The notes: a model not told the origin generated them from the sequence alone. DNA of 22,993 nt from a virus (IMGVR_UViG_2713896729_000008:1-22993), one strand, 5' to 3'; shown: positions 5,412 through 22,993, numbered from the stretch's first letter. Program-made: numbers and translations.

Positions 5412-5449
5412 GACGTTGATCCCTTGCTGATAATATCGTTTTGACTGCG

Positions 5450-6795: not shown

Positions 6796-7055
6796 GTATT
6801 ATCTCCGTGTTGGGTAAGTGATTAATTAAGAAGGTATTACTGTAAAGGATGAGACTGACAGGTTATGTCCGTGATACGTTGCGAAGCGCCTGGCGCGAAA
6901 AGGCCGTCTGGGTGCCCTGTTGGCAGCAGTAACGCGCTTATGACCGGTGGTATCTTTTGCTGGTGCAGACAGGTTATGTCTGCCACATAAAAATCATCTG
7001 CCGGATGATGAATAAACAGAGTCATTCACTACAGTCCTGATGACCTTTTACTCAT

Positions 7056-7931
7056 TCAGAAGAAGACCCAGTCCCAGACCGCGCGGGCTACAGACACCAC
7101 AGCATCACGCACGGTACGTATCACCGTCTTCAGCGGCGCAGGCAGGAATGACGATGATTCTGCCGTATCGAACACCAGCCCCACCGCCTCACCGAAGCCG
7201 TCACGGGCCTGCGACTTTACCGGCTCCGTGCAGAGCCTCCCGTGCAACTGTGTCGCCAGCGGGCTGGTGGCGCGGTCCGGAAGACAGCGCATCATGGTGC
7301 CCACCATCTCCTCAGTGCCCCATCCGGCCAGCGCGGACACCATGCAGACAGGATGATGTGGTTTAAACATCGCGGTAATGGCTACCTGCTTTTCCTGAAG
7401 ATTTGCCCATTGCTGTGCTGAAGGCGTGCTGGTTCGGGTATCCCATTCGTGGCAGGGTTCTATTTTGTCGGCCTGGTTAATCACGAACAACACCTGCTGC
7501 TGGTAAGGCTGCATCACGCCGCGCCAGAAATGCTCGTCCACCGACAGCGCCCGGTCATCGGCCTTAATGACCCACAACACCAGGTCCAGCTCCGGCAGCA
7601 TACGCCGGTACAGGGCGCGGTATTCCTGGTCCCGTTGTCCGTTTTCGCCCACGCCCGGCAAATCAACAATCACCAGACTGTGACGCCCGCTGCGTAGCCG
7701 GAAGCGCAGCACGGCACGGGTGCAGGCGTTCACATCACTGACGGCGGAGACTTTCCCCCGAAAGAGTTCGTTACAGAGCGACGACTTACCGACACCACTC
7801 TTGCCCATGATGCCAATCACCGGCTCGTAGTGGGTCAGATTCTGAATACGTTCAAGAATAAGCTGGCGAAGCGTATCGGGAAGCGACGACAGCGGTTGTT
7901 CAAGGGCCTGAAGGCCGTGTGGTTTAGTCAT
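7056..7931 (-). CDS. YfjP/YkfA/YeeP-family small GTPase (prophage-island GTP-binding protein)
   Basis: 291-aa ORF with G1 GIMGKSGVGKSS, G3 DLPGVGE and G4 NQADK motifs; size and motifs fit the cryptic-prophage GTPase family of E. coli. Confidence 0.75.
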   Translation of the reverse strand: MTKPHGLQALEQPLSSLPDTLRQLILERIQNLTHYEPVIGIMGKSGVGKSSLCNELFRGKVSAVSDVNACTRAVLRFRLRSGRHSLVIVDLPGVGENGQRDQEYRALYRRMLPELDLVLWVIKADDRALSVDEHFWRGVMQPYQQQVLFVINQADKIEPCHEWDTRTSTPSAQQWANLQEKQVAITAMFKPHHPVCMVSALAGWGTEEMVGTMMRCLPDRATSPLATQLHGRLCTEPVKSQARDGFGEAVGLVFDTAESSSFLPAPLKTVIRTVRDAVVSVARAVWDWVFF

Positions 7932-7989: not shown

Positions 7990-8053
7990 TTCACGAAGAT
8001 AATATCTGTCTGAGATTATTTCGAATGAAGCTTATTGCTTCTGCCATATCACT

Positions 8054-8881
8054 TTATGATTGCCGTGATTGACTCTTCGCATCATTAAAAGCATTGTTAA
8101 TCAGTTCGTTAAGAATTTCCTTCGATGTGGTCTTCTCTACATGCGCAATAAACTCAAGTTTTTTTTGAGCCGCTTTGGTCAACTTCACAGCAGCTGGTTC
8201 CTTAGCTCTTCTGGCTCTTCTTTCCTTTTGCTCCCATGCATTTTTAAGCTCATCAAGAAGAATATCTTTATGATTTTTATTGATGCCATTTTCCGGCATG
8301 ATGCCATGTCCAAGAAACTTTCCTTTATTACGCCTTTTATTTTTGCCGTTAAGATAAGATTCCTGCTCGGTAGTCCATCCTTTCCAGTTATCAAAAATAG
8401 CAAAGATAAAATAATATTTCTCTTTATTATCATGTGGTTTTAATGGAATGCCTAAGCATCGTTCCTGCATTTGTTGCCATAACCACTGGCATTGAGTTTC
8501 ATCTTTGCTGTTAACCCATGAAAAAGGTGCTGGGTAAAGGGCGTACTGGTGACGCCATTCGATATCTATAGATGAGATTAAATTTGATATTTTTTGAGGC
8601 TTTTTTACGAAGGTTATCAACAGGTGTACGAATAAAGAAAAGCCAACGTTTCTCTCTGAGACATCCTTAATTCTTTTAAAAAGTAACCCGTTTGCATTTC
8701 TGATATTTTCAGGTGGAATTTTATCGGTCTTTTCTTTTTTATCTTGTTTACAGGTACTAAGGTTTATTTTCTCCGGGGACGAGAATGCGGAGGAAGAAGT
8801 TTTATTTTTAGCATCAATAGTACTGGATTGTTTATCAATAGTATCCACTAACTCAGCAGGAAGAGTCTGCGACCACGGCAT
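8054..8881 (-). CDS. hypothetical protein in AT-rich DNA, K/R-rich C-terminus
   Basis: 275-aa ORF in a visibly AT-rich stretch; no motif I recognise. C-terminal third is strongly basic (KNKRRNKGKF..., KERRARRAKEPAAVKLTKAAQKK). Confidence 0.5.
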   Translation of the reverse strand: MPWSQTLPAELVDTIDKQSSTIDAKNKTSSSAFSSPEKINLSTCKQDKKEKTDKIPPENIRNANGLLFKRIKDVSERNVGFSLFVHLLITFVKKPQKISNLISSIDIEWRHQYALYPAPFSWVNSKDETQCQWLWQQMQERCLGIPLKPHDNKEKYYFIFAIFDNWKGWTTEQESYLNGKNKRRNKGKFLGHGIMPENGINKNHKDILLDELKNAWEQKERRARRAKEPAAVKLTKAAQKKLEFIAHVEKTTSKEILNELINNAFNDAKSQSRQS

Positions 8882-8980
8882 AATATCGCGGGAAGGCTGA
8901 GTATATTGACTGGTGGATATAGGGTGATGCTGCCAACTTACTGATTTAGTGTATGATGGTGTTTTTGAGGTGCTCCAGTG

Positions 8981-8990
8981 NNNNNNNNNN
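8981..8990. other. assembly gap (10 N)
   Basis: Run of n. Confidence 0.95.
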
Positions 8991-9200
8991 GATGCTTATA
9001 TCGCAATAACTCCTGACACCTCAATATTACATATGGCAAGTGCCTATAATACCCCTGTTGTTGCAATTTATGCTGATTACAAAACGCGATGGCCCGCAAT
9101 GGCCGATGTCTCGGAGTCAGTCGTCGTTGGGCAAAAAATTGACAATATAAGTCTGGATGAATTCGCAAAGGCATTAAAAAGTGTTTTGGCGAGAATATGA
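8991..9200 (+). CDS. glycosyltransferase family 9 (heptosyltransferase-like) C-terminal fragment
   Basis: Frame open from the gap: DAYIAITPDTSILHMASAYNTPVVAIYADYKTRWP... resembles the conserved C-terminal nucleotide-sugar-binding segment of LPS heptosyltransferases. Confidence 0.5.
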   Translation, partial: DAYIAITPDTSILHMASAYNTPVVAIYADYKTRWPAMADVSESVVVGQKIDNISLDEFAKALKSVLARI

Positions 9201-9461
9201 GACAGTACTTATGCATAGTAATGCCGATCTGTTATGAACGGTGGTGTCATCAATACTCTGAGGCTGGTCAATCATCACAGAAAACCAGCCTTTAGATCAA
9301 AGCAGTACTCACCGAAAATGATCATAGTCACATCGAACGCGATTCTGGCGGTGCCGCATTTTTATTTATTCATTTTCTGTGAGAGAAGGGCTAGTTCTGT
9401 AGAGGGAATGTAAAAAAGAGTGCCCCGAATGGAACACTCTTTAAGAAATTATAACGGAAAA

Positions 9462-10317
9462 TCACAGGTTTTTATAACATGTCGCATAAGAAAACCCAAG
9501 CTTTTCAAATACGCTTTGATCACCTGTTGCCAGGGAAACTACGTATTGTTCGCTTGAGTTTGCGGGACTAGATGACCAATACATATTTGATTGAAAACCA
9601 GCGTCAGTCGTGTAATGCCCCATATCTCCCCATTCACTGTACAGTGACCCGATGCCTCGGGAACTACAGTGGTTTAAATAGTTTGCTCTGGGGAGCGTGT
9701 AGCCATTGCTGCTGCAAAAATTTTCAGCAAGGCTGTATATCATGAAAGCCTCGCCGGCGTTCACCCACCAACTCTTCACACGGATTTCGTATACATAGCT
9801 AGGGCCTCCTGATTTTGGCGTCGCCGTAATCCTTTCCGAATTGCTGCCGACATTTTTAAATGTCACTTTACCGGTAGCATCAACATCGACCCAGGAGGCA
9901 GAGCTTGAAAACTCATAATCAGCCGCCGTTTTTCCTGGGGCAAAGTTGTCATTATTCAACTGATAATACGCCCCGGTGAACCCCTGCGAAGGGAATGTAG
10001 TTGTCGGTAGGTCAGTACCATTGACTGATACTGTACCGCTCATTATTTTGTCTTCTGCGCGAGTGAATTGTATTGTGGTACTCAGACCAGCTTGATGAAC
10101 ACCATTCAATACAGGGATCAGCGTTGCGATACCCTCTCCGCCTCCTGTAACAGTGGCTTTGTAATCACCGTTGATATTTAGACTGTAATCAATTGCGCTA
10201 ATTTTTATATAGGGCACGTTAGTACCTGATTGCACAAATTCCATCCCTTCAGAAACTTTGATCGGATTGCCTGATATATCGTGCAGAACAAGACGTAATT
10301 CAGCACTATCGGTATAG
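9462..10317 (-). pseudogene. invasin/intimin-family adhesin, C-terminal portion, 5' end truncated by IS3
   Basis: Minus-strand frame is open from the stop at 9462 right up to the IS3 terminus at 10318 with no credible start (track starts at an internal Met, 10244). Contains a beta-rich Ig-like segment and a Cys-containing C-terminal domain (...NFCSSNGYTLPRANYLNHCSS...SYATCYKNL) reminiscent of invasin/intimin lectin-like domains. Confidence 0.5.
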
Positions 10318-10347
10318 TGATCCTACCCACGTAATATGGACACAGGC

Positions 10348-11214
10348 CTAAGCGAGGTTCTTGTTTTCAAATTGTTCCGGACTGAGGCCGCCACACCAAC
10401 TGTGCCGCCGCCACCGATTGTAATCACATTCGATATAATTAAACACCGTTGCCCGCATTATTTCCCGGCTGATAAAGTGTTCTCCATGGATACATTCCAC
10501 TTTCAGCGAATGAAAGAAGCTTTCCACGCAGGCATTATCGTAGCAGCAACCTTTTGCGCTCATACTTCCACGCAGATTATGCCGCTTCAGTTGCGCCTGA
10601 TAATCTGCTGAACAGTACTGGCCTCCACGGTCCGTGTGAACGATAACGTTCCGGGGCCTCTTACGCCGCCACAGCGCCATCTGCAGGGCATCGCAGGCCA
10701 GTTGCGCCGTCATGCGTGGCGACATTGACCAGCCAATAACGGCACGTGACCACAGGTCAATGACCACTGCCAGATACAGCCAGCCTTCATCTGTACGTAA
10801 GTACGTGATGTCTCCTGCCCACTTCTGGTTCGGGCCACTGGCGTAAAAATCCTGCTCCAACAGATTTTCTGACACAGGCAGGCCGTGTGCGCGGTAGCTG
10901 ACCGGGCTGAACTTCCGGGAGGCCTTTGCCCTCAGTCCCTGACGGCGCAGGCTTGCCGCCACGGTTTTTACGTTAAAGGGGTAACCCTGAGCACGCAGTT
11001 CATCCGTCAGGCGTGGGGCACCGTAACGCTGTTTTGACCGGGTAAAAGCCGCGAGGACAACGCTGTCGCAGTGTTGGCGGAACTGCTGACGCGTGCTTAT
11101 CCTTGTCCGCCGCTGACACCACGTATACCAGCCGCTGCGGGCCACCCGGAGCACGCGGCACATTGCTTTTATGCTGAACTCAGCCTGATGTTTTTCAATA
11201 AAGACATACTTCAT
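10348..11214 (-). CDS. insF: IS3 OrfB (InsF), DDE transposase catalytic region
   Basis: 288-aa [32 protein letters not shown]...[12 protein letters not shown] is recognisable as IS3 InsF; overlaps orfA by 4 nt. Confidence 0.85.
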
Positions 11215-11510
11215 TTCAGGCGCTTCGCGAAGTATGTCGCGGCCTTTTGGAGGATAGCCAGCTCTTCATCCCGTTCTGCCAGCTGGCGTTTGAGACGTGC
11301 AATCTCGGTAGACATCTCCAGTTCACGTTCAGAAGACGTCTGCTGATTTTGCTGTTTACTGCGCCAGTTGTAGAGTTGTGATTCATACAGGCTGAGTTCA
11401 CGGGCTGCGGCAGTAACACCGATGCGTTCAGCAAGCTTCAGGGCTTCACTGCGAAATTCAGGCGAATGCTGTTTACGGGGTTTTTTACTGGTTGATACTG
11501 TTTTTGTCAT
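11211..11510 (-). CDS. insE: IS3 OrfA (InsE), transposase N-terminal HTH protein
   Basis: [32 protein letters not shown]...ATYFAKRLK is recognisable as IS3 InsE; the track ORF begins two in-frame codons-plus upstream at 11519. Confidence 0.85.
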
Positions 11511-11575
11511 GTGAGTCACCTCTGACTGAGAGTTTACTCACTTAGCCGCGTGTCCACTATTGCTGGGTAAGATCA

Positions 11576-11902
11576 CTGAACCAGTGGGATGCGCTGTGCT
11601 ACTACTGTGAAGATGGCCTGGCAGAGCCTGATAACAACGCTGCCGAACGAGCCCTTCGTGCCGTCTGTCTTGGGAAAAAGAATTTTATCTTCTTCGGCAG
11701 CGACCACGGTGGTGAGCGCGGAGCCCTGCTGTACGGACTGATCGGGACGTGCAGGCTGAATGGTATCGATCCGGAAGCCTACCTTCGCCATATCCTGAGC
11801 GTACTGCCGGAGTGGCCCAGCAACAAAGTGGCCGAACTGCTGCCATGGAACGTGGTTCTTACCGATAAATAACCGTCAATACGGCGCTCACTTAACGCTT
11901 AC
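11576..11902 (+). mobile_element. IS66-family element remnant: transposase (TnpC) C-terminal 98 codons plus probable terminal repeat
   Basis: Frame open from the first base after IS3: ...DNNAAERALRAVCLGKKNFIFFGSDHGGERGALLYGLIGTCRLNGIDPEAYLRHIL...ELLPWN, stop at 11870-11872. This is the conserved IS66 TnpC C-terminal signature. The sequence ...cgcttac ending near 11902 is the reverse complement of the GTAAGCG IS66-type terminus. Confidence 0.75.
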
Positions 11903-12075
11903 AATTGGCGTTAGTGTTAGACATATATTCAAGCCTATCTCTTATCTGGAGATACAGCTACTGTCTGGTGTTTCAGGGGGCTACATTAGTAACAATCCTG
12001 ACACTGAGGGCATCAGGTCTTTCTTCAATCTCACACTCCGATTATCTGAGCAAAAATTTCTCTATATTTAGTGCA

Positions 12076-12103
12076 TTTACAAATATATCTGATTTCGTAA
12101 ACT
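12076..12103 (+). promoter_or_regulatory. candidate sigma70 promoter for the defence operon
   Basis: TTTACA (12076-12081), 16-bp spacer, TAAACT (12098-12103), in an AT-rich 270-bp intergenic region upstream of the SNF2 gene. By-eye hexamer match only. Confidence 0.25.
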
Positions 12104-12176
12104 AGATTTCAGAATTGAAAATTGGTTCTGAAAAAGGTAGACCAGTTTAGAACCTGAGCTGATTACAGGAAATGGA

Positions 12177-14027
12177 ATGGTTTATTCGATAAAACACGGC
12201 ATTGTCGAGCAGGACGGGTGTCCAATCGATCCCGAATTGCTTTTTAGACTTGGCAAATTTGTAGCTGAGGCTAGAGACAGCGAAACTACTTTGGTCATCT
12301 CAAAACGCCCAGCTGAACTGAAATTCCGGTTCAGCCATGAACCAGCGCCTTCATTCAGATTGTTTTTCAGGGAGGTAGAGCTTACTCCTGATCAGGTGAA
12401 TTCTTTGGTGGAATACGGTTATTTTATTGCTGATGGCAAGCGGGTGTATTTTGTCAGTGACAGACTTAAGGATTTCTCCGTATCTGCCTGCAACAAGCTG
12501 TCACTCCCCGGATTGCTCAAACTACTTCGCAAACTATACAATGATGGACTTATTGACGCTCTTCCATCATCCCTTGTAGAGAAGCTCAGGGCACAGCAGC
12601 AGAAAATATCACTCCACGATAAACTCTTTGTCAGGGAACTCTACCCCTACCAGAATGAAGGTGTTGCATGGCTGACCTTCTGTGCAGCCAACGGTGTGGG
12701 TACCATCCTTGCCGATGATATGGGTCTGGGTAAGACTGCTCAAGTAATTGCCCTGTGCTGCGATGTTCTCGAACACAATCCTGAAGGTAGGATCCTTATT
12801 GTTGTTCCCAATCCTCTGCTGGCCAACTGGATCAGAGAATTTTCTTTTTTTGCTCCTTCACTCAGACCTTTTCTCCATTATGGGCAGAACAGGAGCGGTC
12901 TCAGTTCAGATCTTTCCGAGCACAATATAATTGTTACTCCCTATACCGTATTGAGTTCCGATATTTCGATGCTGGAAGAAATCCCGTTTGACCTTGTACT
13001 TTATGATGAAGCCAGTATGCTGAAAAATCCTCAGTCGGGCAGATCTCTTGCAGCAAGACGTCTTGATTCTGTTGCTTCCGTTGCAATGTCGGGAACTCCT
13101 GTCGAGAACTGCCTTCTTGACGTCTGGGCTCTCTGTGACCTGGTTTTCCCCGGTTTTCTCGGAAACGAGCAGGATTTCAGATCTCGTTATGTCCATCGCG
13201 AACTGTCCAAAACGCTCAATACGGATCTACACGGGCTTGAAAACAGTCTCCGGCAGATAACCCTGCGACGTATGAAAAAAGATGTCCTGACACAGCTGCC
13301 TGAAAAAATGGATATTCACAGAGCTGTTACCGCAGGAGACAAGGAACGAAATACCTATGAATCCATCATTGAGGAGATGCAGCAGGATGCGGCAAAAGGA
13401 GGAGGAGGTATGCTACCCCTGATCAACAAACTACAGCAGTTTACTGCACATCCGGCTCTTCTAGATCCGAGCATACCCCATGATGTCAAATCCCTATGCC
13501 TCCACAGCGCCAAATTCGAACTACTGATGATGGAACTGGACGGCATAGAACAATCCGGAGAAAAAGTCATCATCTTTGCCACATTCCAGAAGGCAATCGA
13601 TCTGCTAGGTGCTGCAGTTAGGGAACGTTATGGCATCACCCCAGGAGTGATTGACGGACGGACTCCAAATGAACAACGGCAGCCGCTGATTGACAGATTT
13701 TCCAAATCGTCCGGATTCGATCTGCTGCTGTTGCACCCTAAAACAGCCGGTATGGGGCTAAATATCACCGCTGCCACCAATGTAATCCATTATTGCCGAC
13801 AGTGGAATCCGGCCCTTGAGGCACAGGCTACGGCAAGAGCATGGAGAAACGGACAGAAATCTGTGGTTAGCGTTTACTACATGTATTACGCGGATACTGT
13901 CGAAGAAATGATCGATGAACGGATACGAATGAAACAGAAGCTTAGCGAGCAGGTTGTTGCAGTGGCCGACTATAAAGAAACAGACAAACAGCTGATGCTG
14001 GAATATTTGGAATCGATAAAAAAATGA
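12177..14027 (+). CDS. SNF2-family helicase-like ATPase
   Basis: 616 aa; RBS aggaaa upstream of ATG. Motif I LADDMGLGKT, motif II LVLYDEASMLKN, motif III MSGTPVEN, motif V GMGLNITAATNV, motif VI QATARAWRNGQ. N-terminal ~150 aa without recognisable motif. Confidence 0.9.
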   Translation: MVYSIKHGIVEQDGCPIDPELLFRLGKFVAEARDSETTLVISKRPAELKFRFSHEPAPSFRLFFREVELTPDQVNSLVEYGYFIADGKRVYFVSDRLKDFSVSACNKLSLPGLLKLLRKLYNDGLIDALPSSLVEKLRAQQQKISLHDKLFVRELYPYQNEGVAWLTFCAANGVGTILADDMGLGKTAQVIALCCDVLEHNPEGRILIVVPNPLLANWIREFSFFAPSLRPFLHYGQNRSGLSSDLSEHNIIVTPYTVLSSDISMLEEIPFDLVLYDEASMLKNPQSGRSLAARRLDSVASVAMSGTPVENCLLDVWALCDLVFPGFLGNEQDFRSRYVHRELSKTLNTDLHGLENSLRQITLRRMKKDVLTQLPEKMDIHRAVTAGDKERNTYESIIEEMQQDAAKGGGGMLPLINKLQQFTAHPALLDPSIPHDVKSLCLHSAKFELLMMELDGIEQSGEKVIIFATFQKAIDLLGAAVRERYGITPGVIDGRTPNEQRQPLIDRFSKSSGFDLLLLHPKTAGMGLNITAATNVIHYCRQWNPALEAQATARAWRNGQKSVVSVYYMYYADTVEEMIDERIRMKQKLSEQVVAVADYKETDKQLMLEYLESIKK

Positions 14028-15622
14028 CAGATAAAATTGAATTACAGGAAAATGATTTCCGCCCTTCTGCTGCGAGGCTGGTCGAAAGCCTCCGTGATAC
14101 GGGATACAGTGAAAAAGCGGCATTTGCTGACATTGTAGACAATTCAATAGCAGCTAATGCTACGAAAATTGCCATCGAGCTCCAATATCTAATGGGTGAG
14201 TTCCGAGTAGTCATTACCGATAACGGTGATGGAATGACTGAGTCCGAGCTGAAGAATGCGATGCGGTACGGTTCCGAAAAACGGCCGAATCCGAAGTCAC
14301 TGGGCAAATTCGGAATGGGGCTGAAAACTGCGTCTACGGCATTCTGCCGTAGACTGGTGGTACTTTCACAGAAAGAAGGAACTGCAGTAGGCCGTATCTG
14401 GGATCTCGATACCATCAGTGAAAAAGATCGCTGGGAACTCGAGACCCCAGATGAAAACGACTATTACGACGATTTCGAAGTTCTTGAGGATTTCTCCGGA
14501 AATTCAGGCACCATGATTGTCTGGGAAAAAATTGATCGTCTGATCAAGCCAGGCAGCGATAGACAGATGCTTGATCAGATCCGGACCCTCGGTAAGGAAC
14601 TTGTTGACGAACTGAGTGCCGTCTTTTTCAAATATCTTTCCTCCGGAAACGTAGAAATTTCACTCAAAATTGCGGATGAACCCGAAATCCTTCTCCAAGG
14701 ATGGGATCCCCTGTCTACTGAACTTGTTACCAGTGGCGGGGCCCGTCCCCAGCTCTTGAAAGAAAAGAAAATCCGCGTCGAGTTCAACGGAAACAGCTAT
14801 TCTTTCACAATCAGAGGAAGCCTGATTCCATCGCAGAATGAGCTGACTGCGGAAGAGCAGGAGGCTGTGAGATACGGATTGGATAACCAAGGGTTCTATA
14901 TCTATCGAGAAGACCGGTTGATATGGAATGACGGCTGGCCTCACCGAATGTATAAAAAGGAAGGTAAGATCACCCGTCTGCGTGTCGAGCTGGTTTTCTC
15001 CCATGAACTTGATGATGTATTCAGTATCGATTTCCGCAAAAGCCGAGTGATAATCCCTGTTGAAATCCGTAGGGAACTGCAGTCGCTGATTGCTCCATGG
15101 CGTCAGGCACTACTTTCCGTTCCGTCAAAAAAACAATCTGAACAGTCCGGTTCGACACGTGCACATGGTCCTGCTGATAATGCGATAGATAAGCAGAAAA
15201 ACCGTACAAAAAACTCCGATATAAAGGTTGATGGCGAAACAGTTACTATCAGAAACCAGAACCAGCCCAAACCTGCAGTAATCAACGATATACGCGTCTA
15301 TGAGGACAAGACTGTCAGGGTTCACGAAGAAAACTCCCTGATGGGTGACAATCTCTGGGAACCGTCATGTGACATTGATGGAAACACCTGCGTAACACTT
15401 GGGAAGTCGCATCCATATTTCCTGAGAATGTATGATGTCTGCAAGGACAATGTAGAAGCCATGAAAGCTCTCGACATGCTTCTGTGGAGCCTTGCAAATG
15501 CCGAACATGGTGAATACTCAGAAGCGAACAAGCACACCCTGAAAGGATTCCGCCAGAAGGTCAGTGAGAGTCTTCGTTATCTCAGCCTTGAACTGCCGGA
15601 TCCGGAAGAGGATTCAGAATGA
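14024..15622 (+). CDS. GHKL (Bergerat-fold) ATPase, MutL/MORC-like
   Basis: 532 aa; ATG overlaps the SNF2 stop (ATGA). N-box DIVDNSIAANATKIAIEL (compare MutL ELVENSLDAGAT), G1 box VITDNGDGM, G2 box GKFGMGLK. C-terminal ~300 aa unassigned. Confidence 0.85.
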   Translation: MTDKIELQENDFRPSAARLVESLRDTGYSEKAAFADIVDNSIAANATKIAIELQYLMGEFRVVITDNGDGMTESELKNAMRYGSEKRPNPKSLGKFGMGLKTASTAFCRRLVVLSQKEGTAVGRIWDLDTISEKDRWELETPDENDYYDDFEVLEDFSGNSGTMIVWEKIDRLIKPGSDRQMLDQIRTLGKELVDELSAVFFKYLSSGNVEISLKIADEPEILLQGWDPLSTELVTSGGARPQLLKEKKIRVEFNGNSYSFTIRGSLIPSQNELTAEEQEAVRYGLDNQGFYIYREDRLIWNDGWPHRMYKKEGKITRLRVELVFSHELDDVFSIDFRKSRVIIPVEIRRELQSLIAPWRQALLSVPSKKQSEQSGSTRAHGPADNAIDKQKNRTKNSDIKVDGETVTIRNQNQPKPAVINDIRVYEDKTVRVHEENSLMGDNLWEPSCDIDGNTCVTLGKSHPYFLRMYDVCKDNVEAMKALDMLLWSLANAEHGEYSEANKHTLKGFRQKVSESLRYLSLELPDPEEDSE

Positions 15623-16542
15623 ATTATGAATACGATCTGGCCGATTTCAAACGTTACCTTTACGACAAAAACCACAGTTACAGGGTAGATGGACTGATTT
15701 TCTGGCAGAACAGGATTCCGTTGCCGATTGACCTGTTCAATCGAATATTCGATGAATCAGATCTGATAATTGCAGATTTTGTTTATCAGGTAGCAGCAAG
15801 CGCTGCCGTTTTCAGCGAAAAAGAGTCATTCGAGAGTACCTTCGGGCTGGAAGTGACAAATCTTCCAACCGACAAGCTTAAAGCGGAAATACCAGCACTG
15901 TCCACGTGGGTGGATGAACATCTGCCTGAAAATTGCAGAATTGTCCGTATGATATATGAAATCGCGGAGCTTCTGGGCCTTTCAGAGTTCAGGTTTTCCG
16001 GTGATAGGATCGCAAAATCGCTTGCTCACCAAGGGAAAAAGTATGCCCGTCTATTCATGCCGAGTCCGGTAAAGGATCTGGTGAACAACATTCAGGGATG
16101 TGACACCATCGGGCAGGACAATACTGACATGTTCGGTAATATCATTGCCGACCGTTATAATATTTACCGTTCAGGTTTCAGTGATGCCTTGGCTATCATA
16201 TTCAATGCCCTACTCGAATTTAGGCTCCTGTTTTCTGGAAAAAGCGGCAATCTGCCTAGATTTAGGGTAATGATGACTGCTCCTGACGACATCGATATTC
16301 GTTTCGGTAAAACAGCCGACGGTTCATTGTGGGAACCTGGTTACGGGGACGATCATTTCATTACCATCAATACTGAACATCCCGTGATGAAAAATCAGGC
16401 GAAAGACCAGGGCTGTGCACTGGCCGAATTGCTGTTTTTTATGGGGCAGTATGAAAACTCTCAGTTTTCGGACCAGAACAAGAAATTTATTGAAAACATG
16501 CGACAGACAATATCCAGAAATCTCTGGATCAAGTATGACTAA
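15619..16542 (+). CDS. hypothetical protein, operon partner of unknown function
   Basis: 307 aa; ATG overlaps the GHKL stop (ATGA); same strand and frame-coupled inside the operon; no motif I recognise. Confidence 0.7.
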   Translation: MNYEYDLADFKRYLYDKNHSYRVDGLIFWQNRIPLPIDLFNRIFDESDLIIADFVYQVAASAAVFSEKESFESTFGLEVTNLPTDKLKAEIPALSTWVDEHLPENCRIVRMIYEIAELLGLSEFRFSGDRIAKSLAHQGKKYARLFMPSPVKDLVNNIQGCDTIGQDNTDMFGNIIADRYNIYRSGFSDALAIIFNALLEFRLLFSGKSGNLPRFRVMMTAPDDIDIRFGKTADGSLWEPGYGDDHFITINTEHPVMKNQAKDQGCALAELLFFMGQYENSQFSDQNKKFIENMRQTISRNLWIKYD

Positions 16543-16569
16543 TTTTTCTCATGCAAGGACGGGACAAGT

Positions 16570-18510
16570 ATGCTTTCAGAACTGGATATGGTGATGAACT
16601 GGTTCAAAAATGAACCTGAATCGGCATGGCAATTCGATGAGATCGGATTCGATGATGAAACAAGAACGGTTCTATCAACAACCGGACTGACATTGCTGGA
16701 CCATACAGCACGGATGAAAACTGGAAGCGGGTATCACTGTTATATACCATGCCAGTATCTGATGTATATGCTAAAGATTGGGCCATTTGTAAGACTACTG
16801 GACAACTACATCTCTGTATTCGAAGAAATCAAAAAAAATATGTTTCCGGCAGAATTCGAAGCAATGATCGAAAGCGGAACGTCAAACGAGCAGGCGCTCG
16901 TTTCGCTGGACATCTACAGCCGCAGTAACTTTTTCTGGGCTTTCAAAGATCCCAGAACAAGACTTGAGGCAAAAAATCTAATAAACACGAGCTCAAAAAC
17001 TGGGAAAAAGAGTTATAGGCAATCCGATGATTTTGTCAAATCGGTCTTGCTGGCATCATTGCCGGTCCCGAATGTAAGCTCGGAAACACTCGGTACCCTG
17101 ATTCTTGATCTGGTGCGTTCTCAAGAAACATATGATTACCTTCAAAGGAGATATATGCCCAGTCTTCCTTATATGTTCAGTGTTCCTGATGGGGATGAAC
17201 TGCTGTTCAGAATAATGACAACCATTGGCTGGTCCGGTCAGTTTGAGCCTTTACTGGGGACTGACCCCGATGCCGAATTTGTTTCATGGAATGATATAGA
17301 CAGGGCATTTCTTCTCCGCCCATCCAGGGAACCCGGCAATGCGCTGTATGTCCAGAATCCCGTCCATTTTTCTGTTCCGCTGGAGAAATATATTTTCATC
17401 AGAAAGGGTCTCTTGGATACTCCCGATTCACTTGAAAAAATATCGGTTCTGGTTTCCGGTTTATGGCTGGGGATGAGTATCCGGAACAGAGAGGGCAAGT
17501 TCTTTTTCGAGTCATCGACCAGAGCCTCCGTATCCGGACCTAGAGTGACCGGTGGAACGAACAGAATCTTCTATGGGGCACCCGGTACGGGAAAAAGCTA
17601 CAGGGTCCATGGTGAAATGAGTGACGGTGCAGAAAAGATTGTCACAGTTTTCCATCCTGATACTCAGCATAACGATTTTGTCGGTGCCCTGAAGCCTAAA
17701 ATGGAAAAGAATGAACAGGGAGAAAGCAGCATAACCTACAGTTTCAGACCAGGCCCCTTTACCTGCGCACTCATACTGGCCATTGCTCGTCCAGACAGAA
17801 AGGTCTGTCTCATTATCGAAGAAATCAACCGTGCTTCTGCTGCAGCTGTCTTCGGCGAGCTTTTCCAGCTTCTAGACAGGGAGCCTGATGGAACGAGTAC
17901 CTACAGCATCAATGCCACTGATCCGGATATGATCGAGTATATAAATACGGAACTAGGTACTATGGGATGTACTCCTGTCGATAGCTTACGGATCCCGTCC
18001 AATATGTCTCTACTGGCTACCATGAACAGCAGTGATCAGGCAGTTATGCCGCTGGATACTGCATTCAAACGGCGCTGGAATTTCGAATATCTACCAATCG
18101 ATTTATCAAAACCGGAGATCCCACAAACCGAAATCGTTTTCACCACCAATTCAGGAAAATATTCGGTACTCTGGCGCGATTTTGCTCAAATTATTAATGA
18201 CACCCTTGTCGAATGTGAAATAGCAGAGGATCGTCTGATCGGCCCGTTTTTCCTAGATTCTAAAGAACTGGAAAATAGGGAAGCAGCGAAAGCTGCCCTT
18301 GGCGGAAAACTGTTCATCTATTTGTGGGATGATGTGCTGAGACATGTCGGACACCAGAAAATATTTGCGTCTACCTTCAGAACGTTCGGCAACCTATCTG
18401 CAGCATTTCGCAATGACATGGCTGTTTTCTCCACTGCCGTAGAGAACAGACTTGAAGGGGTGGGCACTCCTGTTGACATGAACAGGGATCCGCAAGATGT
18501 TGCCAGCTGA
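16570..18510 (+). CDS. McrB-like AAA+ GTPase with unrelated N-terminal domain
   Basis: 646 aa. C-terminal half has Walker A RIFYGAPGTGKSY, Walker B CLIIEEINRASAAAVFGELFQLLDRE (McrB DEINRA-type signature) and MSLLATMNSSDQ...DTAFKRRW. N-terminal ~330 aa has no resemblance I can see to the E. coli McrB DNA-binding domain. Confidence 0.85.
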   Translation: MLSELDMVMNWFKNEPESAWQFDEIGFDDETRTVLSTTGLTLLDHTARMKTGSGYHCYIPCQYLMYMLKIGPFVRLLDNYISVFEEIKKNMFPAEFEAMIESGTSNEQALVSLDIYSRSNFFWAFKDPRTRLEAKNLINTSSKTGKKSYRQSDDFVKSVLLASLPVPNVSSETLGTLILDLVRSQETYDYLQRRYMPSLPYMFSVPDGDELLFRIMTTIGWSGQFEPLLGTDPDAEFVSWNDIDRAFLLRPSREPGNALYVQNPVHFSVPLEKYIFIRKGLLDTPDSLEKISVLVSGLWLGMSIRNREGKFFFESSTRASVSGPRVTGGTNRIFYGAPGTGKSYRVHGEMSDGAEKIVTVFHPDTQHNDFVGALKPKMEKNEQGESSITYSFRPGPFTCALILAIARPDRKVCLIIEEINRASAAAVFGELFQLLDREPDGTSTYSINATDPDMIEYINTELGTMGCTPVDSLRIPSNMSLLATMNSSDQAVMPLDTAFKRRWNFEYLPIDLSKPEIPQTEIVFTTNSGKYSVLWRDFAQIINDTLVECEIAEDRLIGPFFLDSKELENREAAKAALGGKLFIYLWDDVLRHVGHQKIFASTFRTFGNLSAAFRNDMAVFSTAVENRLEGVGTPVDMNRDPQDVAS

Positions 18511-19771
18511 TATTCTGTATCTTTCAGACAGGACACCTGTCACCGATCGCAGTATTCCTGCGACCGTGCTCGATGAGCTGAGAAACAGGGGGCTGCTGGC
18601 CCCCGACATGCAGAAAATCCATTTCTGTGGAGTCATGTCTTTCAGTGGAGGTCTGGCTGTATTTCTGCCACGAAATAACAGTTCTTCTCGTGAATCGCAG
18701 GCTCTTTCAGCACATTATCTGCTCCGCTCACTCCTGAAATTCTACCGAGATAGAGACACCGGTGTTTTTGATGGGGATGCAGGAACCGGACTTATCGGTG
18801 GTGAATCCCTGTCGTTGGCAACTGCACTGATTGACGACTATCAGACGAATGGTCTCTATGTCCGCCGGATTAGAGTCGATACAACCAACTCCGGAAAAGT
18901 TGTATGGCCGGAGACAATTGCCCGAGGGACTGCCTATACTAGCCCATCTGGGCCTGTATATATCGATCCTGTAACCACACGTTCGCGCTACCTCACCGAT
19001 AGCGAGACAGCAAAGATTCATGCCTCTGTAATGAGGGAGCTCTATCCGGTATACGGAATGCTCTGGACAGGCAGTCAGGGCACTCCTGAACGACTGCAGA
19101 ATGTTCCGCGTCCTGAGGGAAATGTTTTCTCATGGGTTGTACACCTAAGAAGAGAACTGCAGTTCAGCTATTCCGAAAGGGATATTTTCCTTTTGCGGAG
19201 ACTGATCATGTATCTTGAAACAGGGAGAGGAATGCGGAATGGCGGGGTTCTTATCGGTGTCAGGAAGTTTCACAGTCTGTGGGAAGCCATGCTGGATGAA
19301 TGCTTGGTGGGTAAATACCGAGTTAACAATAAATTGCCTATTCCCGTGTATCGGGCCGGCAGTGACAGGTTTGTTCCCGTTGCCAACAAGAGCCAGAGAA
19401 CGGATACGGTTCTCCACAATGCAGAAAAAACGCACGTCGCGATCATAGATGCCAAATACTATGATGCGAAGACACCGGATAGTGCTCCTGGTTGGCCGGA
19501 TCTGGTAAAACAGTTTTTCTACCAGAAGGCGCTTTCTTACCTAGTGCCGGTCGGTACCCACATCACAAACCATTTCATTTTTCCTGGAACAGAAAAGCCA
19601 CTCAGGGCTGTCCATGTTGCGGAAAGGGGAAAGGTTCTGGTTACAGAAGCTGACTGTCTGTCCGAATATCCGCCGATTCATTGCCATTACCAGGATCCCC
19701 TAGAACTACTTCGGCTGTATTCAACAGGAGAAAAGCTGGTAGAACTGACCCGCGAAATTTTTACAGTCTGA
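18497..19771 (+). CDS. McrC-like PD-(D/E)xK nuclease subunit
   Basis: 424 aa; start overlaps the McrB-like stop by 14 nt (mcrBC-type arrangement); contains ...TDTVLHNAEKTHVAIIDAKYYD, fitting the (I/V)DxKY nuclease motif of McrC and LlaJI.R2. Confidence 0.7.
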   Translation: MLPADILYLSDRTPVTDRSIPATVLDELRNRGLLAPDMQKIHFCGVMSFSGGLAVFLPRNNSSSRESQALSAHYLLRSLLKFYRDRDTGVFDGDAGTGLIGGESLSLATALIDDYQTNGLYVRRIRVDTTNSGKVVWPETIARGTAYTSPSGPVYIDPVTTRSRYLTDSETAKIHASVMRELYPVYGMLWTGSQGTPERLQNVPRPEGNVFSWVVHLRRELQFSYSERDIFLLRRLIMYLETGRGMRNGGVLIGVRKFHSLWEAMLDECLVGKYRVNNKLPIPVYRAGSDRFVPVANKSQRTDTVLHNAEKTHVAIIDAKYYDAKTPDSAPGWPDLVKQFFYQKALSYLVPVGTHITNHFIFPGTEKPLRAVHVAERGKVLVTEADCLSEYPPIHCHYQDPLELLRLYSTGEKLVELTREIFTV

Positions 19772-19883
19772 AAAGATTCGGACTATGCCCAGAAATGTCG
19801 ATAGACATGAGACCCCCTCATTGATTGATCATCCGTACAGTGATACTATCGCCGGGAATAAAACCGGATAAGGTGAGCATGGG

Positions 19884-21200
19884 ATGGACAGTAAGAATAA
19901 ATTCCAATATATCAAAAATATGAGAAAAAAATTAGGCATAGGTCGCACCGAATTTGCCAATCTTCTCGGACTCGGTGCCACCGGAGAACGTACAGTCCGA
20001 GGATGGGAAGAAGAGGAACATGAACCGTCTTCCGCCAAATGGCAGGCCATTCTCGATGTGGAAAAGAAGATGACTGAATATCTGGAAAACGCACCTTTCC
20101 GCCAGAAGCCTGAAAATGAATGCAATTTCACCTTCATCGATCTGTTTGCTGGTATCGGAGGTATTCGTCTTCCTTATCAGCAGCAGGGAGGGCACTGTGT
20201 ATTCTCATCCGAATGGGACAAGTTCTCCCAGAAGACCTATCTAACGAATTTCGGCGAAATGCCCCAAGGTGACATCACTAGAATTCCGGCATCCGACATT
20301 CCTGATCACGATGTACTGCTTGGCGGATTTCCATGCCAGGCTTTTTCACAGGCCGGTTTGAAAAAAGGTTTCAGCGATACCCGTGGAACCATGTTCTTCG
20401 AAATTCAGCGGATAATGACAGCCAAGCGTCCAAAGGCATTCATGTTGGAAAATGTCAAGCAACTGCAGGGACATGATAAGGGTCGTACCCTGAAAACCAT
20501 TCTCGATATCCTGCGGGGCAATGGAACCCATTCCGTTCCGGACGATATCCCGATTAGTGAGGATGCCCGCAATGCTCTGTCCGAAAAACTCAATTACTGG
20601 GTTGATTACCGTGTACTGCGTGCAGGTGACTTCGGTGCCCCCCAGAACCGTGAACGTATTTTCATCGTTGGTTTTGACCGTGACTATTATAGGGGCGTGG
20701 ATTTCGACAGTGTATTCAGATGGCCGGTACCTCCTATGACTCCGACCCGTGTTGGTGACATTCTGGAAGACCTCGATCGTCTGCCTCTATCACAAGACAG
20801 ATATACCATCTCGGATAGACTGTGGATAGGCCACCAGAAACGGAAACTGGAACACGAAAAGAAAGGTAACGGTTTCGGCTATTCTCTTTTCAACAAGGAC
20901 AGCGAATACACTAATACCATCAGTGCACGTTATTACAAGGACGGCTCCGAAATCCTGATTGACCAGTCACATTTGGGTAGGAACCCACGCAAGCTAACTC
21001 CGCGCGAATGTGCACGTCTACAGGGATTCCCTGACGACTACATCGTCGATGCTGTTTCACAGGGCCAGATCTACAAGCAATTTGGCAACTCTGTCTGCAT
21101 GAATGTCATCCGTGCTGTCTCGGAACAGTTGGTCGAAACTATGAAAAAAGCCGAAATACTGGCTGGTAAGAACCAGGGTCTGGAGCGAACAGCAGGCTAA
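19884..21200 (+). CDS. DNA (cytosine-5) methyltransferase with N-terminal XRE-type HTH domain
   Basis: 438 aa; RBS aaggtgag. N-terminal HTH-like KKLGIGRTEFANLLGLGATGERTVRGWE. C5-MTase motifs I FIDLFAGIGGIRL, IV GGFPCQAFSQAG, VI FMLENVKQL, VIII QNRERIFIVG, IX RKLTPRECARLQGFPDDY, X KQFGNSV. Confidence 0.9.
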   Translation: MDSKNKFQYIKNMRKKLGIGRTEFANLLGLGATGERTVRGWEEEEHEPSSAKWQAILDVEKKMTEYLENAPFRQKPENECNFTFIDLFAGIGGIRLPYQQQGGHCVFSSEWDKFSQKTYLTNFGEMPQGDITRIPASDIPDHDVLLGGFPCQAFSQAGLKKGFSDTRGTMFFEIQRIMTAKRPKAFMLENVKQLQGHDKGRTLKTILDILRGNGTHSVPDDIPISEDARNALSEKLNYWVDYRVLRAGDFGAPQNRERIFIVGFDRDYYRGVDFDSVFRWPVPPMTPTRVGDILEDLDRLPLSQDRYTISDRLWIGHQKRKLEHEKKGNGFGYSLFNKDSEYTNTISARYYKDGSEILIDQSHLGRNPRKLTPRECARLQGFPDDYIVDAVSQGQIYKQFGNSVCMNVIRAVSEQLVETMKKAEILAGKNQGLERTAG

Positions 21201-21540
21201 TGACCCTGCAGTGGAAGAAAATGTCGTGATGTGATGCCCCCTTTCCTGAAGCAGCCAATGTAATACTGCCACAGTTTGCGTTTGCTATGGGAGTAAATCA
21301 CATCACTACATATGTAGCCTTTTCATTATCACAATATTCCTCAGTGTTAGACTGAATACTGCGCCATCCACTTCCTATCTGATGGCTTCACCACTTTTTT
21401 GCCAATCTAAGAATCCCAGCAAAACGGCCCATCCACTTTTAGAGATCTTCCGACTGATCTTGACCCGCCATCTCCGGACAGCTTTTGTAGCTAAAATTAA
21501 CGATGCTCGCTGCCGCCGGTATTCTCTCGGAAAGACATAT

Positions 21541-21563
21541 CCCACCCGCACAGTGCGGGTGGG
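21541..21563. repeat. 23-bp perfect palindrome between convergent methyltransferase and integrase genes
   Basis: cccacccgcac-a-gtgcgggtggg: 11-bp arms, single-base centre; no flanking T-run on either strand. Confidence 0.6.
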
Positions 21564-21730
21564 AGACTGATTTAGTCATCATCTTTCCTGTCTCTATTTT
21601 CTTCCTAACTGGCATCTAGGCTACAAAGATAAACTTCCGCCTATGGAACAGAGCTGCCTGCAGATTAGGTTTAGCTCTGTGCCAGAGCTGTGTCAGATCA
21701 AATCTGAGCTAATATATTTAAACACATATG

Positions 21731-22993
21731 CTACATATTACCCCGGTTGATCTTCGCATAGTCAAACGGCGTAATTCCCCTTTCCCGATTGGCATCCAGA
21801 AAATCAGCCCACCACTGCAACATCAGCTTGCGCTCATCCAGATGTTCCGCTTTATGAATATACGCCGCCCTCACCGAATTGCGTTCCATATGGCTCATCT
21901 GCCGTTCTACCGCATCTCTGGACCAAAGACCTGACTCAATCAACGAACTACAGGCCATTGCCCGGAAGCCGTGACCACAGACATCGACCTTTGTATCATA
22001 GCCCATCAGACGCAGTGCGTTATTTACAGTGTTCTCACTCATGGGTTTCCATGGATTGTGATCGCCGGTGAAAATCAGTTCATGTTCTCCGCTGATAGTG
22101 TGGATCTGCTTCAGTATATTCACCGCCTGAGTAGATAGTGGCACAAGATGCTCTGTTCGCATTTTTGAGCCACGATGGGAATACTTGACCCCTTCAATAG
22201 GTTTCCGCTCAGGAGGAATGGTCCACATGGCTTTCTTGAAGTCGATCTCAGACCACCTGGCAAAGCGTAGTTCGCTGGAACGGATGAAGATAAGCAGGGT
22301 GAGTTTAGTTGCCTGCCGGGTGAGAGGTTGTCCTCTGTAGGCATCCAGTCGTTCAAGAAGCTCTGAAATGCGATTTAAGGCGAGGGCAGGGCGGTGCTGG
22401 CGTTTCACTGTGGTTAACGCGCCAGCCATATCCAAGGCAGGGTTATAGGTGATAATGCCTGACTGGGCAGCATAGCGCATGATTGCAGTGATACGCTGCT
22501 GAAGGCGCGCTGCGATTTCATATATCTCCTTTGCTTCGGCTGCTTTAACGGGAACAAGTAAATCGGGAGTCCTGAGGGTGGTAATGTCACGTGAACCAAT
22601 AAAGGGGAAAACATGAGTTTCGAGGCTTTTCAGTATCCTCTCATTGTGTGAGGCTGACCATTTTTTGTTGCTCTTATGCCACTGTCTTGCGATGCCTTCA
22701 AATGTCTGAGCTGTTTCGGGTACCGACTTTTTGATCCTTTTCTGTTCGCATGGGTCAGTTCCCTCAGCTATCAGCTTTCTCGCCGTATCGCGTTTTTCCC
22801 TTGCTTCTGATAACGAGACTTCAGGATAGACCCCCAGAGCGAGCGTTTTCTCTTTGCCCAGAAACCGATAGCGGAGCCGCCAGTAGCGAGAGCCGTTAGG
22901 GTGAACGAGCAAGAACATGTTGCCGCTGTCGGCAAGTTTATAAGGTTTTTCATCCGGTTTAGCGGCACGGATTTTAGCGTCAGTGAGCGCCAT
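21731..22993 (-). CDS. int: P4-type tyrosine integrase (site-specific recombinase)
   Basis: 420 aa; N-terminal arm-binding region MALTDAKIRAAKPDEKPYKLADSGNMFLLVHPNGSRYWRLRYRF typical of the P4 Int / IntA family; catalytic region with HGFRAM (HxxR) and RAAYIH (Tyr). The start codon is the final three bases of the window. Confidence 0.9.
   Translation of the reverse strand: MALTDAKIRAAKPDEKPYKLADSGNMFLLVHPNGSRYWRLRYRFLGKEKTLALGVYPEVSLSEAREKRDTARKLIAEGTDPCEQKRIKKSVPETAQTFEGIARQWHKSNKKWSASHNERILKSLETHVFPFIGSRDITTLRTPDLLVPVKAAEAKEIYEIAARLQQRITAIMRYAAQSGIITYNPALDMAGALTTVKRQHRPALALNRISELLERLDAYRGQPLTRQATKLTLLIFIRSSELRFARWSEIDFKKAMWTIPPERKPIEGVKYSHRGSKMRTEHLVPLSTQAVNILKQIHTISGEHELIFTGDHNPWKPMSENTVNNALRLMGYDTKVDVCGHGFRAMACSSLIESGLWSRDAVERQMSHMERNSVRAAYIHKAEHLDERKLMLQWWADFLDANRERGITPFDYAKINRGNM

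Follow-up and report, generated by a model that had tools for sequence, protein, structure and literature searches.

What brings a SNF2-family motor, a GHKL ATPase, an uncharacterised protein, a McrB-like and McrC-like pair and a cytosine methyltransferase (MTase) together in one short run of genes? The question is raised by IMGVR_UViG_2713896729_000008:1-22993, a stretch of 22,993 nucleotides (nt) recorded as viral, which is called the window here and from whose first letter all positions are counted. An earlier reading by a model, made without database searches (the sequence-only reading), had proposed that the six genes form a composite system of the restriction-modification (R-M) type, in which the SNF2 and GHKL proteins are coupled to a McrBC-like nuclease and the MTase protects self DNA. 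Our comparisons support this proposal, the function being predicted from sequence. The region 12039-21349 is probably a self-contained, mobile six-gene defence cassette of R-M type, built from two modules that also occur separately. Gene content, intact motifs, operon structure, co-inheritance, exchange of the nuclease between lineages and a conserved operator-like element are directly observed and carry this reading. The cassette and its genes are listed below (lengths in amino acids, aa; P3 denotes the third protein and L numbers denote the loci compared).

12039-21349, no strand: mobile cassette, the stretch common to the E. coli drafts L001 and L002, in which the flanks are unrelated
12177-14027, plus strand: SNF2-family ATPase/translocase, 616 aa (Pfam SNF2-rel_dom 4.5e-50, Helicase_C 7.5e-19)
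14024-15622, plus strand: prokaryotic MORC-type GHKL ATPase, 532 aa (Pfam HATPase_c_3 4.3e-30)
15619-16542, plus strand: P3, uncharacterised, 307 aa, invariably linked to the SNF2 and MORC genes
16570-18510, plus strand: McrB-like AAA+ NTPase, 646 aa (Pfam AAA_5 2.8e-10)
18497-19771, plus strand: McrC-like PD-(D/E)xK nuclease of the LlaJI family, 424 aa (Pfam RE_LlaJI 6.2e-32)
19884-21200, plus strand: C5 cytosine DNA MTase fused to a helix-turn-helix (HTH), 438 aa, Dcm/EcoRII-like architecture (DNA_methylase 1e-94)

The open reading frames (ORFs) fall exactly where the sequence-only reading had placed them, with the same overlaps and spacer. By the ORF coordinates, ATGA overlaps of 4 nt join SNF2 to MORC at 14024 and MORC to P3 at 15619, a gap of 27 nt between P3 and the McrB-like gene ends before 16570, and the McrB-like and McrC-like genes overlap by 14 nt at 18497. 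A 112-nt spacer separates the McrC-like gene from the MTase gene. All six genes are intact and their catalytic motifs, read directly in the translations, are complete, as had been claimed. The SNF2 protein contains GLGKT and DEAS; the GHKL protein DNSIAA, DNGDGM and GKFGMG; the McrB-like protein GAPGTGKSY, IEEINRA and MNSSDQ; the McrC-like protein TD...IDAKY; and the MTase FAGIGG, PCQ, ENV and GNSV. The catalytic motifs of the five enzymes are kept across the full-length family (SNF2 53/53, McrC D...DxK 35/35, McrB 39/40), and PCQ and ENV of the MTase are kept in 58/58 members.

The six proteins were searched against Pfam, NCBIfam and PADLOC v2. The domains assigned earlier to the five enzymes were recovered by these profiles and the 307-aa protein was left unmatched. 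None of the three libraries gives the whole cluster a system-level identity, in line with the earlier failure to place it in a characterised system. RefSeq labels the orthologues of SNF2, MORC and P3 as DEAD/DEAH box helicase, ATP-binding protein and hypothetical protein, and those of the other three as AAA family ATPase, LlaJI family restriction endonuclease and DNA (cytosine-5-)-methyltransferase.

One module is predicted to be an R-M system of the LlaJI/BsuMI type, made up of the HTH-fused, Dcm-like 5-methylcytosine (m5C) MTase, the McrB-like motor and the McrC-like PD-(D/E)xK nuclease. The nuclease matches RE_LlaJI at 111.6 bits against a cutoff of 23.6, and NCBI annotates its orthologues as 'LlaJI family restriction endonuclease'. 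The McrB-like protein matches the REBASE-derived REase_II models of PADLOC at 1.7e-49 and E. coli McrB in the PDB at 3.5e-8; its score with the NCBIfam McrB equivalog is 30.9 against a cutoff of 637. Its AAA+ domain is 38% identical to the lactococcal LlaJI-type R1 of pLLNCDO702C, where two C5 MTases are followed by R1 and R2, and the protein is 38-41% identical to LlaJI-family R1 proteins on plasmids. The AlphaFold2 (AF2) model of the protein (pLDDT 85.5) has B. subtilis YdiS/BsuMI.R2 as its top Foldseek match (33% identity, E 4e-22), above canonical McrB. The sequence-only reading had called the nuclease GTP-dependent. That label is not safe, because the closest structural relative is YdiS/BsuMI.R2 and this subgroup is reported to be nucleotide-promiscuous: according to a preprint, the R2 motors of LlaI and BsuMI are not GTP-specific (bioRxiv 10.64898/2026.08.31.748284). 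Citing earlier work, the preprint also states that the restriction genes of LlaI are not stably maintained unless the MTase is present, and that BsuMI acts at a defined sequence.

The McrB-like protein is laid out as N-domain 1 (approximately residues 24-198), an insert of approximately 120 aa (199-320) and the AAA+ domain (321-620). N-domain 1 is homologous to the N-domain of a McrB-like protein from Salinivibrio by profile-profile alignment (hhalign). A PDB sequence search with the N-terminal region was empty. The full-length query returned thousands of homologues and the N-terminal 320 aa alone returned none, which we take as a limitation of the tool and not as evidence. The insert (within window 16570-17529) is beta-rich and is restricted to window-type McrB-like proteins, being absent in those of the Salinivibrio, L044 and L046 type.

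The MTase matches TIGR00675 at 8.7e-91, M.HhaI at 8.6e-64 and, in PADLOC, DrmMII at 2.5e-98. It is 37% identical to E. coli Dcm, and the target recognition domain (TRD) motifs GNGFGY and SARYYKDG-EILID are common to both. An identity of 37% is too low for the methylation site to be predicted from Dcm. The fused HTH described earlier gives a weak signal in the window protein (residues 9-56; NCBIfam MqsA-type HTH, 4.9e-4, below cutoff) and is plainly detected in a relative of 62% identity (HTH_3/HTH_23, 1e-5 to 5e-6). A C5 MTase 65-78% identical to that of the window is adjacent in every locus.

This first module also exists on its own. The Salinivibrio costicola plasmid pM138.2 (L079, 5896-10395) carries a three-gene system without SNF2, MORC and P3. 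Its HTH-Dcm-like MTase is divergent in orientation and 74% identical to that of the window, its McrB-like protein has 556 aa with an AAA+ domain 54% identical, and its LlaJI-family nuclease is 44% identical. Because MTase and McrBC stand alone as a three-gene system there, the SNF2-MORC-P3 trio must be regarded as an add-on that is not obligatory for the McrBC-like nuclease. The metagenome loci L044 and L046 are intermediate, with the trio and a short McrB of the Salinivibrio type.

The trio itself is read as the second module, consisting of a SNF2 translocase, a true MORC and P3. The sequence-only reading had called the GHKL protein MORC-like, and the comparisons sharpen this call. The protein contains GFYIYREDRLI, which fits the diagnostic S5 motif GhXhhpXXRhl, and in a sequence search of the PDB human MORC2/3/4 match it best. 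Judged by these features it is a bona fide prokaryotic MORC. Across the MORC family S5 is kept in 59/59 members, as are the DNGDGM-type motif II (59/59) and the GxFGxG-type motif III (59/59), and motif I is kept in 55/59. A C-terminal region (approximately 400-520) is conserved and has no assigned function. The helicase core of the SNF2 protein is matched best by ZorD/DpdE-type profiles in PADLOC, where the DrmD match is weak; it follows a fast-evolving N-terminal domain of approximately 150 aa with no assigned function.

P3 has no match in Pfam, NCBIfam, PADLOC or PHROGs, even at E<=10. Its AF2 model is moderately confident (pLDDT 79) and mostly helical, and the predicted fold has no PDB match. 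Residues that never vary across the family are grouped in HxGKKYxR, DMFGNxxAD, YRSGFSDA, DGSLWEP and, near the C terminus, E...R...SR. The P3 gene always follows MORC, or an HNH gene embedded behind MORC, and P3 is never alone among the sampled loci. We therefore infer that P3 belongs obligately to the SNF2/MORC engine and serves it as adaptor or specificity factor. A role as a DNA-binding subunit of the LlaI.R1/BsuMI.R1 type was ruled out, since P3 is predicted to be mostly helical, lacks a PDB match and travels with SNF2 and MORC rather than with McrBC.

P3 was used as the search marker because it is the least promiscuous of the six genes. The close P3 family comprises 224 clusters, all of approximately 307 aa and at least 56% identity. 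The hosts are Vibrio, Photobacterium, Aliivibrio, Aeromonas, Shewanella, Yersinia, Pantoea, Pectobacterium, Xenorhabdus, Providencia, Moritella, Amphritea and Glaciecola, together with a betaproteobacterial metagenome-assembled genome (MAG) and contigs labelled Atribacterota. The same six genes recur in more than 30 loci, including those of E. coli, Vibrio, Shewanella, Aeromonas and Undibacterium. Of the first 25 loci compared, all from genomes or assemblies, 22 encode the six proteins together, as do the type-B (window-type) metagenome loci; the remaining three are a Xenorhabdus locus that has been rearranged, a symbiont locus in decay and one distant relative. The genes always follow the order SNF2-MORC-P3-McrB-McrC and keep their tight junctions. 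The MTase gene is upstream and divergent in most loci, and downstream and co-directional in E. coli, Rheinheimera, Alkalimonas and Undibacterium.

The unit is mobile. Window 12039-21349 is 97.2% identical at the nucleotide level to the E. coli drafts L001 and L002, with sharp boundaries (blastn against the window), which gives a cassette of approximately 9.3 kb. A Rheinheimera MAG (L010) is 81% identical across window 12066-21164. GC content falls from approximately 0.55 to approximately 0.44-0.48 over the six genes. Vibrio cholerae copies adjoin an integrase beside smpB, the cassette adjoins a resolvase in other contigs, and the V. vulnificus plasmid pFORC54 carries it; the cassette was found in no phage record. 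The sequence-only reading had asked whether the neighbourhood is conserved in other genomes and moves between unrelated loci; it is conserved across genera and sits at unrelated loci. The six genes are thus one conserved, horizontally mobile cassette that moves as a unit. It is rare in E. coli, where it is known from drafts and metagenomes only. The six-gene stretch is present in none of 5,426 complete E. coli genomes (megablast with 12000-21300; sensitive blastn with the MORC gene), and occurs in E. coli draft assemblies and metagenomes at 96-99% protein identity.

More distant relatives place the trio beside a different nuclease. A full HMMER scan of 1.84 billion representatives recovered only 52 clusters related to P3, approximately 30 of them full-length at 27-35% identity, from one genome (L025, the same sequence as metagenome L057) and approximately 25 metagenome contigs (L047-L074). 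Their architecture, which we call type A, is an HTH-C5 MTase with or without Vsr, SNF2, MORC, HNH and P3 (L025/L057, 3843-10945). The HNH gene sits inside the trio, between MORC and P3, and overlaps both neighbours. Vsr is present in L025, L052, L058 and L071 and absent from the window. Pfam finds no nuclease domain in the trio proteins of the window type (type B). A C5 MTase of the same family lies beside the trio in every sufficiently long locus recovered, and in all of these loci except L052 the trio is next to HNH (approximately 25 loci) or the McrBC nuclease. Since the trio is found elsewhere with HNH, and MTase-McrBC alone in Salinivibrio, the window cassette is best described as a hybrid. 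Its arrangement indicates that a MORC trio was inserted between the promoter and mcrB of an autonomous R-M module of the LlaJI type. As a separate matter, the L052 set is flanked by ORFs of 184 aa and 316 aa without assigned function. ORFs of approximately 180 aa, similar to that of L052, precede SNF2 in L044, where the ORF is an integrase fragment, and in L071, where it has no Pfam match.

The MTase start is marked by a short conserved element, and a weaker copy was noted before the SNF2 gene.

19852-19870, minus strand: 19-bp operator-like element TATCCGGTTTTATTCCCGG, an imperfect inverted repeat TCCGGT-N5-ACCNGG
12138-12156, plus strand: degenerate operator-like copy TAGACCAGTTTAGAACCTG, found by eye, weak, approximately 20 nt upstream of the SNF2 start, failing the motif regular expression

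The element has the consensus TATCCGGTTTT-N3-CC(N)GG. It lies 14 nt upstream of the MTase ATG in the window, abutting the ribosome binding site, and approximately 12-15 nt upstream of the MTase start codon in the loci examined. Every locus that includes the region upstream of the MTase gene has the element beside the MTase start, and it is also found in the three-gene Salinivibrio system. A regular expression for the motif matches once in the window and either once or twice in each of 36 related loci; one extra match, in L029, is stray. Two copies are found where the MTase is divergent from the SNF2 operon; the second has the same orientation and lies approximately 20 nt upstream of the SNF2 start. 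The spacing of the two copies is 63-65 bp, as in L005 (6476-6494 and 6539-6557). The degenerate copy of the window occupies the position of this second copy, so that the window has one clear copy only. The 19-bp element is probably the operator for the N-terminal HTH of the MTase. N-terminal regulatory HTHs are known from C5 MTases of the SsoII/EcoRII type. These likewise combine an HTH on a Dcm-like MTase with a palindromic element in the promoter or 5' untranslated region; the putative operator described here has a sequence specific to this family. As the element contains CCGG/CCNGG and the MTase is Dcm-like, the operator itself might be methylatable by the MTase, which is speculation.

A separate promoter for the MTase, as the sequence-only reading had assumed, is plausible in view of the conserved operator 14 nt upstream, but a promoter scan performed no better than chance (14 sites against 14.0 expected). 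Between the two operator copies of divergent loci there is a further conserved element, ACTGTATAT(N4-5)ACAT, for example in L005 (approximately 6500-6520), L007, L020, L039 and L079 (approximately 7255-7272). This ACTGTATAT...ACAT element is not present in the window. It may reflect SOS control through a LexA box or may simply be an extended -10 element; among the loci examined just 4, one of them the three-gene Salinivibrio plasmid, have a full LexA-type CTGT-N8-ACAG.

Which known systems does the cassette resemble? LlaJI (Lactococcus pNP40), BsuMI (B. subtilis ydiOP/ydiRS-ydjA) and LlaI are R-M systems with McrBC homologues and linked m5C MTases, as in the window. The likeness to LlaJI and BsuMI extends to the RE_LlaJI nuclease, to a McrB-like AAA+ protein directly upstream with P-loop, Walker B and MNxxD, and to the linked MTase. 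The same logic is predicted for the window, with methylation protecting and unmethylated sites being cut. The window has one HTH-fused MTase, in contrast to two in LlaJI and BsuMI, and has SNF2, MORC and P3 in addition, between the promoter and mcrB. The N-terminal domain of LlaJI.R1 is B3-like, and LlaI.R1 has an ERCC4-like alpha/beta fold, whereas P3 is predicted to be mostly helical.

The second likeness is to a class that had been predicted from gene neighbourhoods. Iyer, Abhiman and Aravind (2008) predicted operons with MORC, SWI2/SNF2, an HNH nuclease, Dcm and Vsr to be R-M systems, their class 2, and saw in prokaryotic systems of this sort the proposed origin of eukaryotic MORCs (PMC2292703). 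The window shares with class 2 a MORC protein (GHKL and S5) beside a SWI2/SNF2 helicase, a cytosine methylase and a nuclease, and the relatives L025/L057, with HNH, Dcm and Vsr, have the exact 2008 pattern. The window nuclease, however, is a two-gene McrBC-like motor and nuclease in place of the HNH or EcoRII-like enzymes of class 2, and Pfam finds neither an HNH nor an EcoRII domain in the window. McrB and McrC are absent from the text of PMC2292703, and in the passages on gene composition an additional conserved protein is given for class-3 operons only, as a nuclease of the restriction endonuclease fold, and not for class 2. The sequence-only reading had been unable to match the exact combination to a named system. 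We found no such system either, but the general class of MORC, SWI2/SNF2, nuclease and Dcm was predicted in 2008 and the combination is therefore less unprecedented than had been held.

Canonical McrBC of E. coli K-12, a stand-alone, modification-dependent Type IV system, shares with the window a homologous AAA+ protein, in which an aromatic residue comes after the P-loop GxPGxGKS and the MNxxD consensus loop is present, and a PD-(D/E)xK partner immediately downstream with overlapping codons. It differs in that the window has an obligatorily linked MTase, a LlaJI-family nuclease and another N-terminal domain, and the polarity of the window system is likely the opposite, with unmethylated DNA predicted to be cut. 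DISARM (DrmA/B, the SNF2 protein DrmD and the C5 MTase DrmMII) likewise has a single defence operon that encodes both a SNF2 ATPase and a C5 MTase. The six window proteins include MORC and P3 instead, and no DrmA/YprA helicase, DrmB (DUF1998) or phospholipase D (PLD) domain was matched among them in PADLOC, NCBIfam and Pfam. A census of the CoCoNuTs systems reported that McrBC associates with DISARM-like systems; it also noted MTase-associated McrBC branches and deferred them to a future publication. The best match of the window GHKL protein in the defence libraries is MzaB of the Mza system (MzaABCDE), at 2.2e-42 in PADLOC and 5.7e-50 in NCBIfam. Its score of 170 bits compares with an equivalog cutoff of 850, and no other Mza component was matched. 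Only the helicase core resembles Zorya, through ZorD (NCBIfam 252 against a cutoff of 1500), and there is no ZorA/ZorB. Identity with MADS, DISARM, Mza, Zorya or Dpd was ruled out on gene content.

HEF_HK/Response_reg_2 paraMORC pairs (Bellieny-Rabelo et al. 2021, PMC8011034) provide another parallel: a conserved partner gene adjoins that of a HATPase_c_3 GHKL protein, and the neighbourhood is enriched in C5 MTases, HNH and Vsr. GHKL and P3 as such a pair were ruled out, as neither PF19191 nor PF19192 was matched even at E<=10. Among eukaryotes, silencing by MORC, SNF2 remodellers and DNA methyltransferases (for example RNA-directed DNA methylation in plants) brings the same three families together around cytosine methylation. 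The bacterial version is coupled to a nuclease and its methylation presumably marks self rather than the silenced target, so that this is a 'works like' analogy only.

How might the cassette work? The MTase would methylate a short cytosine-containing site of the host and so mark self DNA. Its N-terminal HTH would bind the 19-bp operator and thereby set its own expression, and at divergent loci that of the nuclease operon as well. Unmarked incoming DNA would be recognised by the N-domain of McrB, the trio or both, the N-terminal region of the McrB-like motor being the part expected to bind DNA. The SNF2 motor could translocate along the DNA while the MORC dimer uses ATP to clamp it or draw it into a loop, with P3 as adaptor or specificity subunit of this engine. 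The trapped DNA would be handed to, or would activate, the McrB hexamer and the McrC nuclease and be cut. A bolder version holds that the trio is a nuclease-agnostic engine that senses unmethylated DNA through P3, entraps it by clamping or looping and licenses whichever nuclease is at hand, HNH in most relatives and McrBC in the window. The trio would then upgrade an autonomous LlaJI-type R-M system and represent the prokaryotic counterpart of the eukaryotic MORC/SNF2-remodeller/DNA-methyltransferase axis. We consider this version unlikely to hold.

Several observations weigh against a single integrated system. Both modules exist independently, so the trio could be a separate system that merely shares the operon. 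In L044 a GmrSD_N/DUF262 protein, an AAA_15+DUF3696 ATPase and a 307-aa unknown protein (9964-13205) lie between the trio and an inverted McrC-McrB-MTase block, and with this unrelated three-gene set in between, strict adjacency is not required. L052 (5228-11796) holds the trio, MTase and Vsr with no recognisable nuclease, and its SNF2 protein is longer (699 aa). Nor do evolutionary distances settle the contacts among the proteins. Mean pairwise distances are 0.49-0.55 in the McrB N-domains, the SNF2 N-domain and McrC, the fastest, against 0.15-0.27 in the MTase and MORC. Distances of the SNF2 N-domain track those of McrB/McrC (r approximately 0.9), and those of the MTase TRD track P3 and the SNF2 core (r approximately 0.83-0.84) above McrB N-domain 1 (0.66), both correlations being confounded by shared phylogeny. 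They are suggestive as leads to protein contacts and are not relied on. The serious rival, because both modules exist apart, is that a three-gene LlaJI-type R-M system and a SNF2-MORC-P3 system with an output of its own other than McrC have been co-transferred by defence clustering. The complete MTase-McrBC set of Salinivibrio pM138.2, the approximately 25 loci with the trio but no McrBC, and the insertion in L044 speak for this rival. It is disfavoured because the trio of type-B loci lacks an effector domain of its own, because the HNH gene embedded between MORC and P3 in type-A loci argues that the trio works with a nuclease, and because in more than 30 loci with 35-55% protein divergence the trio always lies between operator/promoter and mcrB, with codons overlapping or near-abutting. 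Two independent systems are thus quite unlikely.

L052 could also be taken to mean that the core of the system is not nucleolytic, and that SNF2-MORC-P3 compacts or silences unmethylated incoming DNA, the nuclease (HNH or McrBC) being an optional second line. The interchangeable nuclease module agrees with this, as does a true MORC with S5 and MORC2/3/4 matches, given that eukaryotic MORCs entrap and compact DNA according to one study (PMC8277788). Nearly every locus nevertheless has a nuclease whose catalytic residues are always intact, and no prokaryotic MORC system has yielded evidence of silencing; we give this explanation a low probability. The homology of the AAA+ domain to canonical McrB might instead suggest a Type IV system, in which the McrBC-like pair cuts foreign methylated or hypermodified DNA and the MTase serves regulation or marks DNA for cleavage. 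This is highly improbable. A LlaJI-family nuclease and a motor closest to BsuMI.R2 belong to enzymes of MTase-protected, site-specific systems, the 65-78%-identical MTase comes with a dedicated operator in every locus, and Vsr in several relatives is expected where the host DNA itself carries m5C. The six-gene R-M cassette built from two modules remains the preferred reading.

R-M systems with McrBC homologues are already known in kind, and MORC-SNF2 R-M operons are known as a prediction. The six-gene hybrid, the P3 family and the operator appear to be undescribed so far. A full-text literature search, with subscription journals outside its coverage, found no paper that combines prokaryotic MORC with McrBC, no named defence system with GHKL and SNF2, and no experimental work on the prokaryotic MORC-SNF2 operon class or on any prokaryotic MORC ATPase. 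As this coverage is incomplete, a description elsewhere is possible. What is new compared with the 2008 class is McrBC as the nuclease and the conserved P3. The cassette provides a tractable entry point to prokaryotic MORC, being 9.3 kb long and natural in E. coli and V. cholerae. Nature supplies a control without the trio in the three-gene Salinivibrio system, with its 74%-identical MTase, and a nuclease-swap series in HNH against McrBC. Such comparisons could reveal what MORC and SNF2 add to a restriction enzyme, the role of P3 and how a McrBC motor is recruited to unmethylated DNA. Annotators should treat the cassette as one system and not as six generic helicase, ATP-binding, hypothetical and AAA ATPase genes.

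The window as a whole is part of an enterobacterial integrative island. Two further features give the context of the cassette.

11570-11870, plus strand: C-terminal remnant of an IS66-family transposase at the left cassette edge, read in the sequence
21731-22993, minus strand: P4-type tyrosine integrase of the host island, outside the cassette (Arm-DNA-bind_3, Phage_int_M, Phage_integrase)

L001 has DDE_Tnp_IS66 at the equivalent left-edge position, and the IS66 remnant of the E. coli drafts L001/L002, which is in the same place, is 70% identical to that of the window at the nucleotide level. An IS3-family element, with orfA/orfB on the minus strand (10348-11519), lies directly to the left of the IS66 remnant and the cassette. 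The left part of the island matches many E. coli chromosomes at 98.7% identity. Its genes occupy window 165-2147 and 3259-7931 and comprise a D5/Toprim primase-helicase together with CP4-57-like genes for a YfjS-family lipoprotein, a GYF_2-domain protein, a WYL/HTH regulator and a MMR_HSR1-type GTPase. A sharp GC trough (0.37-0.39) spans window 8000-9500 and contains two minus-strand ORFs (8054-8881 and 8938-9216) with no Pfam match. Beside them a 260-aa ORF (9462-10244) has weak matches to invasin/intimin domains. At the other end of the window, a strong GC-rich hairpin of 11 bp with a T-rich tail behind it (21540-21564, minus strand) lies downstream of the integrase gene and is likely the integrase terminator, marking the right-hand junction region.

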